A stretch of DNA of 54,081 bases, taken from NCBI GenBank assembly GCA_010093745.1, contig MU006012.1, positions 1 through 54,081 of the forward strand. The letters run 5' to 3'. The position numbers and the translations under genes were made by a program. The DNA comes from Piedraia hortae CBS 480.64. Taxonomy: Eukaryota. The notes beneath the pieces were generated by a model. The model was not told the origin of the DNA. It saw only the letters and a list, made by a program, of their open reading frames with translations, and did not search any database. Positions 13,950 to 19,106 of the stretch are shown here, in pieces (position 1 is the stretch's first letter; each line of letters starts with the position of its first letter).

Positions 13950-14910
13950 ATGGCCACTTGTGCGGGGACTATTTTGAGATTCTCGAGCTTCTCCATTCGA
14001 TATCCGATCGGGTAAGCGGGCAGATTCTCGCCTCTGCTCGATCTGAAGAGGATCATCAAGCCTTTTGTGACGACGATTCCATGCAGATTCGGGTCCGTGT
14101 GCGCGCAGATGCAAGTGGACCTCGACACAGTGATGGAGATAGAGAGAGTCCGATTTACGCATTCGACCTTGTCGCTGTCAGCGTCATGCAGATCAGAGCA
14201 CGTCTCCTTGTGCAAGGTTGCGAGAAAGAAAATCCACTGAGTCGGTAAACAGCATTGCAGACAGGGTGATCATCTTGGAGGACGACTCAGAAGCTAAATT
14301 TCTCGCCCTCTCGAATGCTAGCTCCGACATGATGCGGTGATCCCGATTTTCTCCGTGGGAAGAGCCAACATGACAACTTCATCCCTACCTCCATCTCAAC
14401 TTCGTTACAGGGCTGGGATTGCCTTACTCCCAAGCCATGCGGGGGTTCGAGAGACGCAAGGGGTTCAAGGCAAACAACCCGCCCAGTCACCATGCTGAAT
14501 CAAAGGCACCGAGCGCAACTCCCGGTCGGCCGCCGGTTTAACGACAAAACGATTCTCTGTGAGCTGATGCTCGAATCCGGCAAGTCCAACTGGCTGGAGT
14601 GCAAGGTCCAGCGCATGGCTGTGCGGCCTAGAGAAGAAGTGCTGGCAGGCACGCGAAGCCGTTTAATGGCAAGTGTGAGGTTTTTATCGCACGAAGCTGT
14701 CGAGCAACGGAGGGGAGCTATCCTCGATAATGACCTGCAAGCAGTTTTGAACAGGCTCTGCTTCGCGACCACAATCAACAAGTCCCATGGACGGTCCCTT
14801 GATATGGTTGAGCTAGACGTTGTTTTCTAATGGTCAACTCCTCTCCCGAATCATCAAACGTGGTCATCCCAATGGACACACTAATCCCCTAGGATCAACG
14901 GACAACGTTG
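13950..14910 (+). mobile_element. Decayed Helitron/PIF1-type helicase relic
   Basis: 14756-14852 reads LCFATTINKSHGRSLDMVELDV, then after a frameshift FSNGQL-LSRI. This matches the PIF1/Helitron motifs LAFAMTINKSQGQSL and VFSHGQLYVALSR. LCGDYFEIL (near 13960) weakly resembles GGDFRQIL. Boundaries are approximate. Confidence 0.65.
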
Positions 14911-15118
14911 TACTAGGCTACATAGTGCTTACTTCCAATGCCGCCGTCCTTCAAATGCCAACCCCCCACCGTATGTAAGCGACGTTATTGACAGTATTGC
15001 AACACGTGACAGATCAATGCCAAGACTTTTGCTGCAACGTTGGAAAAAAGTCGGACCAAATTTCGCAAGCTTCCACACATCCCTTACGCCCACCACCACT
15101 CTCTATATCGCTACCAAA

Positions 15119-17098
15119 ATGGCCGAGGAAGTCTACGACGGTGCCATTGGCATCGATCTCGGTGTGCAGCAATCGTCTACATCAACGATCGTAAACTGAC
15201 CTGTCAGGAACCACTTATTCCTGTGTCGCCAACTATGAAGGCGCCGGGGTAGAGATCAGTATGTGTACCAGTTCTATAGCGCGACTCTGCTAACAGAAAT
15301 AGTCGCCAACGAGCAGGGCTCTTTTACCACTCCGTCGTTTGTGTCCTTTACTCCCGAAGAGCGCCTAATCGGCGAGGCGGCCAAGAATCAGGCGGCCATG
15401 AACCCGGCAAACACAGTCTTCGACGTGAAGCGTCTGATCGGTCGCCGTTACGATGACCCCACGGTCAAGAAGGATATCGAGTCGTGGCCGTTTAAGGTTG
15501 TCGATGACGACAACAACCCAAAGGTGCAGGTGGAGTATCTGGGTGAGACCAAGACGTTTTCGCCGCAGGAGATTTCAGCGATGGTGCTTGGCAAGGTATG
15601 TGCAGTTGTAAAGGGTATGGGACTCGCTGACTGTCCGTAGATGAAGGAGATTGCCGAGATGAAGCTGGGCAAGAAGGTGTCCAAGGCTGTGGTAACTGTG
15701 CCGGCTTACTTTAACGATAATCAGCGTCAGGCAACCAAGGACGCCGGAGCAATTGCTGGGTTGAACGTTCTGCGCATCATCAACGAGCCTACTGCAGCTG
15801 CCATTGCCTACGGTCTCGGCGCTGGAAAGTCTGACAAGGAACGTAATGTTCTGATTTACGACTTGGGCGGTGGCACTTTTGATATCTCTCTTCTGCACAT
15901 CCAAGCCAGTGTGTTTACCGTCAAGGGCACTGCTGGTGATACTCATCTCGGAGGAGAAGACTTTGACGCCAAGCTCGTCACTCACTTTGCCACCGACTTC
16001 AAACGCAAGCATGGCAAGGACCTCACGACAAATCCTCGCGCGCTCCGTCGTCTCCAGACGGCTTGCGAACGTGCCAAGCGTACCCTCTCCTCCTCCACTC
16101 AGACGTCGATTGAAATCGATTCCTTGTTTGAGGGCATTGACTACAACACCAGCATCACCCGCGCTCGCTTTGAAGAGCTCTGCCAAGATCTCTTCCGCTC
16201 TACCATTGAGCCTGTAAAGGACGTGCTGCGTGATGCCAAGATCGACAAGTCTGCCGTTAATGAAGTTGTTCTTGTTGGTGGCAGCACGCGTATCCCACGG
16301 ATACAAAAGATGCTGTCGGACTTTTTCAACGGCAAGAAGTTGGAGAAGAGCATCAATCCCGATGAGGCTGTTGCCTATGGTGCAGCGGTGCAGGCGGGGA
16401 TATTGTCGGGTAAGGCGACTTCAGCAGATACGCAGGATTTGCTGTTGCTTGACGTGGTGCCTTTGTCGCTCGGCGTGGCGATGGAAGGGAATATCTTTGC
16501 GCCGGTGGTGCCCCGTGGCCAGACGGTTCCTACCATCAAGAAACGTACGTTTACAACGGTCGCAGATAACCAGCAGACTGTGCAGTTCCCCGTGTTCCAA
16601 GGCGAACGTGTCAACTGCGAAGATAACACTTCTCTCGGAGAATTTACTCTCGCTCCCATCCCGCCCATGAAGGCCGGCGATGCGGTTCTAGAAGTAGTCT
16701 TCGAAGTCGACGTCAACGGTATCCTAAAAGTCACAGCAACGGAGAAGACATCTGGACGGTCGGCTAATATCACCATTTCCAACTCTGTCGGCAAGCTGTC
16801 ATCTGGCGAGATTGAGAAGATGGTTGAAGACGCGGCCAAGTTCAAGAGCAGCGATGAGGCTTTCTCTAAGAAATTCGAGGCCCGTCAGCAACTCGAGTCG
16901 TATATCAGCAGAGTCGAGGAGATTGTGTCCGATCCGGGCATGAGCATGAAGTTGAAGAGGGGTCAAAAGGAGAAGATCGAGAGCGCGCTTAGCGATGCGC
17001 TCGGCCAGCTGGAAATCGAGGATACCAGTTCGGAGGAACTGAAGAAGAAGGAATTGGCTCTCAAGCGTGTTGTAACAAAGGCTATGAGTACGCGTTAG
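15119..17098 (+). CDS. SSB1: Ribosome-associated Hsp70 of the SSB class, with an SSA-like internal segment
   Basis: SSB-type N-terminus [26 protein letters not shown], internal [11 protein letters not shown] and [17 protein letters not shown], and C-terminus [11 protein letters not shown] without EEVD. Introns at 15162-15207, 15259-15302 and 15596-15640. Confidence 0.97.
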
Positions 17099-17391: not shown

Positions 17392-18684
17392 TCATGCTAT
17401 TCCCCCAGCAAGTCTCTGAAACCGCTCAGGTCTAAACCTCTCCCGCGTCCAATTCCTCGCTCTGCCGTCTTGTATCCTCTTTTCCTTTCCCAAAGGGGAA
17501 GAAGCCCCTTCAAGGTGAGACTTGGCGAGGAGGAGAAGGTCTAAATGTCTCTCTACCTGTTTCTTTAGCGCGTGGAGCTTGGCGGGGAGTTTGGGGTTGG
17601 GGAGGGGTGTGCTCGTTGCGACGTCGTTTGGTGGCGTCGGAGAAGAGTCTTGTGGGGTCTTCGTCGTCGATTGCGGAGAAGACTCTCGCGAAGCCTGCGA
17701 AGCCTCATCCCTCCCTACCTCCGAAGAAGGCGGGGAACCATCCCTCATCGATTGCGAAGGATCCCTCCCTACCTCCGCTGATGTGGAAGTTTCCTTTGGT
17801 TGCGAAACCATCGTCCCATTCCCCCGCAGAGCCTTATTCTTCGCTACATGCACTGCTTGCCCCGGCGACGGCGAAGCCTCTCTCCCCACCTCTCTCTCCC
17901 CAATCGCAGGAACAGGCCGTCTAACCCTCTCCCCAAACAACCCCGCTCTCGCCTCAACCCGGACCGTAAGTTTGAATTCGGATTGGATTGTGTTGCTTCG
18001 CGTGCGGGGGGTTGATGTGCGGATGGGGATGGAGCTCACCGCGTGTCCGGTTCCGTTGAAATTCGAGGAGGAGATGCGTTTGGCGGAGCTGAGGGGGGTG
18101 CGGGGTGTTGAGGCGGAGGGGAAGCCGAAGCCTGACGCGAAACCGGGGCCGGAGTGGGAGGTTAACCCGGACGCGGAGCTGGAGCTGGAGCTGGAAGGGG
18201 GGAGGGCAGCTAACGCCGAAACCGAGCGCATCTGTGACGCTCCCCCAGCCTCCACTCCCCCAGCCGCTCCTCCGGTCCCTACTCCCCAAGCGCAACCCCT
18301 CTCCACCTCCTCAATCTTCCCCAACGCACCGCGATAATACCCCTCCGCCGTCTCAAACATCTTCACTTTCTCGGCCGTAGTCCCGCTCCCGCTTCGCCCA
18401 AGTTCATCGTGGGAAAGTGCCAAGAAGATCTCGATGAGGAGCTTCGATTGAAGTGGATGATGGGAGGACTTCAGGACGGTAAAGCACGTTTGGATGCATT
18501 CGCGGTAGTGGTGTTGTGTGAAGAGGGCTTTGATGTAGTGGATTTCGATGGTTTCCATTGGGGGGGTGGACATGTTTTCCTTGGAGGGGATGGTGGGTTC
18601 TTTGGGAGTGTATTTGGGGAGGGCGCGTTGGATCGGTGAGGGGGACGGGACCAAGGGTGAGACGGTGACGTGATTGAGATGCAC
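17392..18684 (-). CDS. Hypothetical fungal protein with helical ends and a low-complexity Ser/Pro middle
   Basis: 430-aa uninterrupted ORF. The C-terminus RIxxxRxxxWxRxRFxPERF resembles an uncharacterised Pezizomycotina family (from memory). The true start could be the Met at 18573. Confidence 0.7.
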   Translation of the reverse strand: MHLNHVTVSPLVPSPSPIQRALPKYTPKEPTIPSKENMSTPPMETIEIHYIKALFTQHHYRECIQTCFTVLKSSHHPLQSKLLIEIFLALSHDELGRSGSGTTAEKVKMFETAEGYYRGALGKIEEVERGCAWGVGTGGAAGGVEAGGASQMRSVSALAALPPSSSSSSSASGLTSHSGPGFASGFGFPSASTPRTPLSSAKRISSSNFNGTGHAVSSIPIRTSTPRTRSNTIQSEFKLTVRVEARAGLFGERVRRPVPAIGEREVGREASPSPGQAVHVAKNKALRGNGTMVSQPKETSTSAEVGRDPSQSMRDGSPPSSEVGRDEASQASRESSPQSTTKTPQDSSPTPPNDVATSTPLPNPKLPAKLHALKKQVERHLDLLLLAKSHLEGASSPLGKEKRIQDGRARNWTRERFRPERFQRLAGGIA

Positions 18685-19106
18685 CTGCTACAACTTACCC
18701 CTTGGGGGGACGTTACTCTTGGGGGTGTGGTGAATGGAGGGTTTGGCCTATCTGGTTATTGACTCGGAGGGGAGGACAGCTACGACTACTTGTTGTAAGC
18801 GACAGACTGCCGCGCGCGAGGAGATTTTTTGGGATTGATATGCAGGTACCCGATTCAGGGTCCTTGACCCCGCGTGGTATTTTTAGGTTAGACACGAGAC
18901 GTGGACGTTGGGCAGAGTATTCTTGTCGTTACTCCTGTCGAAGGTCGAGTGCAACTGGTCGAATGAATGGGCAAGACGAGGAATGGGTTGGAGAATGCAT
19001 GTATAACCAGGTTTCCTTGCTGATTGACTACCCTCCATGGCCTAGCGCGCCAAGTGGGGCGATATCACTGCCTGTCAAAAACTGTACATCCCAACACGAC
19101 CAAATC

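Follow-up and report, generated by a model that had tools for sequence, protein, structure and literature searches.

An SSB-type Hsp70 of Piedraia hortae carries an SSA-type tract within its ATPase domain

A mosaic SSB gene

The only gene for an Hsp70 of the SSB subfamily in the genome of Piedraia hortae, a member of the Capnodiales that lives on hair and has a small set of genes (PMC7082219; papers are cited by PMC number for the excerpts that bear on the point), encodes a hybrid protein: about 100 residues of its ATPase domain are of SSA type, and the remainder is of SSB type. Positions refer to the window, i.e., the whole stretch of DNA analysed (54,081 nt). The hybrid gene occupies 15119-17098 on the forward strand and specifies, in four exons, a product of 614 amino acids; the translation of our exon model is identical to the database protein P0002, the record of which is labelled Piedraia hortae. 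The explanation we consider best, with a probability of roughly 0.72 for the whole of it, is that the hybrid functions as an SSB, originated by repair templated on the SSA of its own lineage, was tolerated and has since been refitted.

15119..15161 (+): SSB gene exon 1; ATG at 15119; translation identical to P0002; intron 1 spliced out in the RNA-type contig of run X2, record 6
15208..15258 (+): SSB gene exon 2; GT..AG joints, translation identical to P0002, X2 contig
15303..15595 (+): SSB gene exon 3; translation identical to P0002, X2 contig
15641..17098 (+): SSB gene exon 4; contains the entire tract and both crossover zones; ends without EEVD

Each Hsp70 subfamily is represented by a single gene in the genome (SSC was assigned from sequence features, KAR2 and LHS1 from their HDEL ends), which also encodes Fes1 and Zuo1; the hybrid is therefore no spare copy. 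Among the matches listed, the next-nearest full-length proteins are Capnodiales SSBs (86-87% over the last exon).

About 300 nt 5′ of the ATG, a stop-free frame (14333-14827, forward strand) resembles the C-terminal part of a Pif1-type (Helitron-like) helicase, with an ESM Atlas feature score of 0.92 to Pif1_2B clusters, no match in Pfam and one weak second copy (G000:C9:365208-365336; 74%); it is probably a decayed transposon piece. One of the contigs of run X2 has its end at 14942. In convergent orientation to the SSB gene, a low-complexity stop-free frame of 431 amino acids without Pfam match lies at 17392-18687 on the reverse strand. The other Pfam-matched genes between 612 and 54010 are ordinary: carbamoyl-phosphate synthase, a sugar transporter, Nop14, a FAD-binding/cytochrome b5 protein, a DEAD-type helicase, a SWIRM amine oxidase, Rgp1, Rxt3, CLN3, Cox11 and an AKAP7-like protein.

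We compared the hybrid with 118 SSB proteins and 204 SSA-type proteins, two reference sets that are separated at 152 diagnostic sites. Each homologue search yielded the best 120 of 8000 scored candidates, the sample lying outside basidiomycete and early-diverging SSBs; one duplicated plant protein (P0003) was dropped from the SSB set, and 22 SSA-type proteins were dropped by length and checked separately. Outside residues 235-336, the hybrid is SSB-type at 128 of 131 diagnostic sites (31/33 in residues 1-234; 97/98 in 337-614, with one SSA-type site), while the 21 sites within comprise 13 of SSA type, two of SSB type and six of neither. Mean identities to the SSBs and the SSAs are 0.91 and 0.70 for residues 1-210, 0.60 and 0.81 for 235-336, 0.93 and 0.75 for 337-400, and 0.92 and 0.38 for 401-614. 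The best segment in the SSA state (residues 235-326) has a log-likelihood ratio of 34.2, a value reached in none of 2000 permutations (maximum 12.6), and the refined limits of the tract are residues 235-336 (15956-16261). A preliminary description, made from the DNA alone, had reported SSB-like ends around a stretch of SSA-like ATPase domain at 15950..16252; the translation it quoted is that of residues 233-333, the SSA and SSB consensus patterns it gave agree with the reference sets, and the alignment it called for bears out the mosaic. It had roughly equated the tract with nucleotide-binding subdomain IIB, which is indeed covered, but the tract extends some 26 residues further into IIA:

15884..15928 (+): residues 211-225, IIA strands of SSB type; private at four residues (I211, A218, S219, G225), each absent from the 118 SSBs and 204 SSAs
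15920..15976 (+): 5′ crossover zone, from the last clear SSB residue (T222) to V242; includes the conserved TAGDTHLGG motif at the IIA/IIB hinge
15950..16183 (+): subdomain IIB, the exchange-factor handle, residues 233-310 (human 229-306), from PDB alignments; boundaries from PMC2940730
15956..16261 (+): SSA-derived tract, residues 235-336; 13 of 21 sites SSA-type; 58 nucleotide steps from the SSB versus 22 from the SSA consensus; tree support 100/100
16145..16153 (+): possible SSB island within the tract, N298-T299-S300; N298 in 112 of 118 SSBs and 0 of 204 SSAs; S300 codon AGC
16184..16261 (+): IIA helices 3′ of IIB, residues 311-336, SSA-derived, from diagnostic sites and model
16262..16297 (+): 3′ crossover zone, from N336 to the SSB-type R349; includes a conserved motif of 10 residues

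The two crossover zones cover the two motifs best conserved between SSA and SSB. Within the 5′ zone, E235 is SSA-type and A239 is one step from the SSB residue, the crossover point being placed to the zone only. Residue numbers are offset by four from human Hsp70 (PDB alignments), and a structure model (mean pLDDT 72.5; below 50 at residues 230-234), used for secondary structure only, has IIA strands at 208-217 and 220-228. A239, P261, T282, N298 and I318 are SSB-type or nearer SSB, and the AGC codon of S300 is one step from the Asn codon AAC common in SSB, the fungus's own SSA having TCG there. These SSB-like sites possibly reflect a patchy repair tract, or else single back-substitutions.

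Other SSBs have few or none of the SSA states at the 21 tract sites: among the matches listed, 92 of the 118 have none of them, 22 have one and four have two, so that none carries the tract. A shared clade trait, which the preliminary description had weighed against a novelty, is thereby ruled out for the sampled relatives. Among the 350 proteins gathered (including 23 outside the site counts), an SSA-tract motif and an SSB-flank motif occur together only in P0001/P0002, and none of 80 metagenome loci combines them. A degenerate pattern for the hybrid, which variants and intron-split genes escape and for which this window was the sole positive control, had no match in the JGI metagenomes.

Continuity, phylogeny and donor of the tract

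The hybrid gene is intact, spliced and transcribed. One contig of 14,987 nt (run X1, record 1) matches the whole region with zero differences, X1 being a run that may be the source of the assembly. From another sample and study, record 6 of run X2 holds a contig of 1,193 nt that runs from 15083 to 16410 with three introns removed at GT..AG joints, by which we took it as RNA; with no mismatch over the listed pieces, it extends from the 5′ SSB flank through the tract and over 100 nt into the 3′ SSB flank. Run X3 yielded short, low-depth identical pieces only. The evidence for continuity consists of contigs, and at that level it refutes a mis-assembly. An artefact fusing SSB with SSA, or the DNA of two organisms, might be suspected because the X1 library is mixed, with a second fungus at a depth of about 246 versus 13 for Piedraia DNA, and because chimeric Hsp70 contigs exist in databases. 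However, the second fungus has an ordinary SSB that diverges over the tract, X2 shows no second SSB, DNA identity between the tract and the own SSA is only 72%, and the contigs of both runs cross both junctions without difference. We regard such an artefact as next to impossible, in line with the view of the preliminary description, which had asked for continuity across 15900-16300 and for the comparison with the own SSA DNA.

Another SSA/SSB mosaic in the databases, P0092 (JGI, a singleton on a 2209-nt contig), is SSA-type in residues 25-156 and SSB-type from 189, with one crossover in a conserved stretch; it is likely a chimera of metatranscriptome assembly.

Trees were built from 45 of the 322 reference proteins, picked by name; those of the flanks are quick trees, of which the N-terminal one has an aberrant A_Equus row that was omitted from the C-terminal one. 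Both flanks group with SSB orthologues (SH-aLRT 100), residues 1-210 inside a group of 14 Capnodiales SSBs (SH-aLRT 99), and residues 357-560 are 99% identical to the Teratosphaeria SSB. A branch with 100/100 support puts the tract on the side of the SSAs, and constraining it with the Teratosphaeria SSB is rejected (p-AU 0.00056), so that the separate trees, a check put forward in the preliminary description, lead the flanks to Capnodiales SSBs and the tract to SSAs. With SSBs included, the tract branches off at the base of the SSA side, and a weakly supported branch (90/51) therefore also unites it with all SSBs; a graft that has a few SSB-like sites should behave in this way.

At the 46 differing sites in residues 235-336, deriving the hybrid takes a minimum of 58 nucleotide steps if one starts from the Capnodiales SSB consensus, as compared with 22 from that of the SSAs and 21 from the own SSA; SSA is nearer at 35 of these sites and SSB at six, with five ties. 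Residues 310-316 alone include six two-step changes, all to the SSA state. Convergence of an SSB lobe on SSA through point mutations could draw on the five SSB-like residues named above and on the AGC codon at S300, but it is contradicted by these step counts, by TCN codons at S280, S281 and S316 and CGT at R326, which are not one-step routes from the SSB residues, and by flanks that have barely changed (branch 0.0056 over 204 columns); we hold it to be very improbable. The contiguous tract, with its discordant phylogeny and sharp limits, is best read as the product of an old, lineage-specific ectopic gene conversion that would have replaced IIB and the next IIA helices, much as the preliminary description had proposed. 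The exchange was one-way, because the own SSA has the SSB state at 1 of the 152 diagnostic sites.

Synonymous identity to the donor is not raised: the hybrid and the own SSA use the same codon at 40 of 83 shared residues in the tract and at 70/155 and 37/79 in the flanks (45-47%), the corresponding fraction for unrelated environmental Hsp70s being 19-52% (13/69 to 37/71; 15 of 80 loci). Exact DNA runs shared by tract and donor are at most 14 nt, and similarity to the donor at the DNA level is gone. The synonymous signal having vanished, the event must therefore be old, and a recent conversion is ruled out by the saturated synonymous sites; on the sequences compared, it postdates the divergence from Teratosphaeria and Baudoinia, both of which have ordinary SSBs. 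The four-fold sites of the tract are C-rich and G-poor versus the flanks (p 0.003, post hoc test), a further sign of a separate history.

Over residues 233-333, the tract and the own SSA (P0241; G000:C40:128044-129915) are alike at 83 of 101 residues. They have in common the rare residues D248, Y297, K322 and N336; no other SSA among the 204 combines more than two of these, and K322 is absent from all. The SSA set was chosen by likeness to the tract or the own SSA, so that these counts are conservative. At H253, Q311, D327, I330 and S333, the tract retains common SSA residues where the own SSA has since changed. The donor was probably the lineage's own SSA, a reading favoured because of the shared rare residues and the prior likelihood of a donor in the same nucleus, not because of the trees. 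Fourteen SSAs are slightly closer in the tract than the own SSA (83.3% versus 81.4%), the trees do not unite the tract with the own SSA, and AU tests reject neither the own SSA nor a Pichia-like donor: a constrained union of the tract and the own SSA is 8.7 log units worse (p-AU 0.24), and when SSBs are removed, the own SSA (p-AU 0.52) and Pichia are equally good as sisters of the tract.

The same recombinant origin with a foreign or since-lost SSA copy as donor (e.g., a horizontally acquired, yeast-like SSA that later disappeared) appears improbable to us, though less so than convergence. Pichia SSAs share five unusual residues with the tract (A246, T247, D248, P261, Y297) and are the nearest rows by path (p-AU 0.48). 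Yet the support for Pichia is 39/0, K322 and N336 point to the own SSA, GC3 of the tract equals that of the flanks (0.65), neither a second SSA nor a remnant was found in the genome, and tract identity stays at or below 83% for the roughly 240 SSA-type proteins listed and at or below 79% for 80 metagenome loci. D248 and Y297 co-occur in 13 of 204 SSAs, including the Pichia proteins P0145, P0146 and P0149-P0154, a recurrence that speaks against the own SSA as donor; their joint presence in these 13 and in both Piedraia proteins suggests a coupled pair in IIB.

The own SSA has diverged further than its relatives among the SSAs (its end branch measures 0.15-0.16 for the tract and 0.10 for residues 357-560), its private residues being clustered in lobe II.

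Function and fixation of the hybrid

Position 298 (human Y294), in an exchange-factor-binding strand, is occupied by Y in all 204 SSAs and by N in 112 of 118 SSBs; the hybrid has N. Human Y294 may contact BAG directly. All exchange factors target IIB (PMC4753570, PMC2940730), and their core contacts in the tract (human R258, R262, E283 and D285; PMC2940730) are invariant in the SSA and SSB sets, and the positions of human R261 and D292 vary little or not at all in either set. In yeast, Sse1 and Fes1 already serve Ssa as well as Ssb (PMC2685646). The preliminary description had the ribosome-bound Hsp70 gaining an SSA-type co-chaperone surface: IIB is SSA-derived, as it supposed, but with core contacts that are the same in both subfamilies, an SSB-type N298 and exchange factors shared beforehand, the surface is hybrid rather than simply SSA-type.

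Apart from an SSB-type IIB, all SSB-defining features tested are kept (compare PMC12847954): the basic lid, the KRR-type motif, the Ssz1 residues, the SSB-type IIA strands and the lack of EEVD.

16538..16546 (+): KKR 429-431, counterpart of the yeast Ssb KRR ribosome contact (PMC5150220; alignment to 9r9o)
17042..17095 (+): basic C-terminal lid helix (K597, K598, K604, R605, K609, R614), the main SSB ribosome-binding site (PMC5123055)

The retained ribosome-binding features comprise K568/R569, K597/K598, K604/R605, K609 and R614 (PMC5123055), and the residues of the Ssz1 interface, yeast R261, E370 and E547, are present as R262, E371 and E548 (PMC8476630). The IIA beta-sheet is the docking area of J-domains (PMC7289447). 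The genome encodes the RAC partners Ssz1 and Zuo1, the latter with HPD. An SSA-type substrate domain and EEVD are absent. We filed the hybrid as a variant SSB rather than a plain member because only 2 of the 21 tract sites in IIB and beyond (residues 235-336) are SSB-type. It would act as the cell's single SSB, bound to the ribosome by its basic lid, recruited together with Zuo1/Ssz1 and holding nascent chains in an SSB substrate domain.

As to its origin, we propose that a break in the DNA of the SSB gene was mended with the SSA gene, or its cDNA, as template, on the own-lineage branch once Teratosphaeria and Baudoinia had diverged. Pairing in the two best-conserved motifs flanking IIB would have replaced about 300 nt in frame, possibly patchily. 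The hybrid's survival may be owed to IIB being a hinged module in which SSA and SSB do not differ at the core contacts to nucleotide and exchange factors. About 11 private substitutions would then have arisen in the graft and in the IIA strands beside it, most likely refitting the graft. Residues absent from both reference sets number 11 of 146 in the stretch 211-356 and 2 of 468 elsewhere (p 5e-6), the reference proteins having a median of 0 and a maximum of 7 (SSBs) or 11 (SSAs) in that stretch; among them are R268Q, at a position where all 322 reference proteins have R, and the four substitutions in the IIA strands next to the tract. Five private residues of the own SSA fall in that stretch as well. 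Of the residues that the preliminary description had called private, Q268 is indeed so; FATDF occurs in Pichia SSAs as well, and in DYNT, Y297 is also found in the own SSA and N298 is the SSB state. The simplest reading of the private substitutions is that they are compensatory, although relaxation or positive selection may also account for them.

The swap may, with the same origin, have been fixed for a different cause, i.e., selected because an SSA-type IIB retuned nucleotide exchange or the choice of co-chaperones, perhaps after the loss of an SSB-selective BAG factor in the reduced genome. Botrytis BAG1 bound the SSB homologue and not SSA1 in two-hybrid tests (PMC6467101), so that an SSB-selective IIB partner exists in filamentous ascomycetes, and once such a partner was lost, IIB could have become replaceable. 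Two routes gave no BAG-domain match in the Piedraia hortae genome, in a search run without positive control, and 10 of 21 ubiquitin-like matches were scanned, none with BAG. That every exchange factor targets IIB, the private residues of the own SSA and R268Q at its otherwise invariant site speak in the same direction. Against selection stand the unchanged core contacts and the SSB-type N298, the presence of Fes1, Sse1, Ssz1 and Zuo1, and a fast local change that is equally compatible with compensation or relaxation; we consider it unlikely, if the least so among the alternatives to tolerance followed by refitting. Equally tentative is the specific form in which the only SSB took over the exchange-factor handle of SSA, retuned by R268Q and ten more private changes with N298 kept, in a genome that may lack a BAG factor. 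If true, a single co-evolving Sse1/Fes1 system would serve both cytosolic Hsp70s, and cross-subfamily conversion would have rewired the chaperone network adaptively.

Two further possibilities were rejected. Loss of RAC, Sse1 or Fes1 is excluded by the presence of all of them in the genome, and loss of mismatch repair as an enabling cause is disfavoured, by locus count, by six MutS-family and three MutL-family loci, the numbers usually found.

Known systems and meaning

The hybrid resembles the fungal SSBs of known structure (Chaetomium thermophilum Ssb, PDB 7olc/5tky; S. cerevisiae Ssb1, PDB 9r9o) in length, N-terminal lobe, linker, substrate domain, basic lid and lack of EEVD, but these have the ordinary SSB pattern over residues 235-336, where the hybrid is SSA-type. 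Conversely, the own SSA, so alike in the tract, shares only 38% identity with it over residues 401-614, and the hybrid lacks the GP-rich tail and EEVD. In the excerpts of Kominek et al. 2013 (PMC3879978), each Hsp70 subfamily is monophyletic across 53 ascomycetes, conversion is described only within SSB (SSB1/SSB2), SSA and SSC, and conversion in Drosophila hsp70 and mammalian HSPA1A/B is cited. Those cases, too, are non-allelic conversions between Hsp70 paralogues; they homogenise near-identical copies, whereas the Piedraia event crosses subfamilies about 61% identical as proteins and leaves a lasting single-copy mosaic. Engineered yeast Ssa/Ssb chimeras (cited in PMC5150220) and MxDnaK1/2 swaps (PMC11019930) demonstrate that pieces of Hsp70 paralogues are exchangeable, and in the yeast chimeras neither Ssb's NBD nor its SBD was essential for ribosome attachment (cited in PMC5150220). 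In contrast to such whole-domain swaps in the laboratory, the Piedraia hybrid is natural, fixed and cut inside the ATPase domain at about the subdomain level. We found no report of a natural SSA/SSB chimera in the literature searched, in which subscription journals are thinly covered. The mechanism is of a known kind and would here have acted across an unusually deep divide between paralogues.

In Ascomycota, SSA and SSB have been viewed as separate units of function and evolution, with conversion inside each only (excerpts of PMC3879978). A fixed, expressed, single-copy hybrid means that exchange can cross the subfamily line at about 60% protein identity, and Hsp70 trees that contain this protein mix two histories. 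The hybrid is a natural domain-swap experiment between two long-separated chaperone subfamilies, and it suggests that SSB identity does not reside in subdomain IIB. As a construct already made, it could be used to ask where in the ATPase domain the specificity for Zuo1, Ssz1 and exchange factors is set; its private substitutions would mark where a grafted lobe needs refitting.
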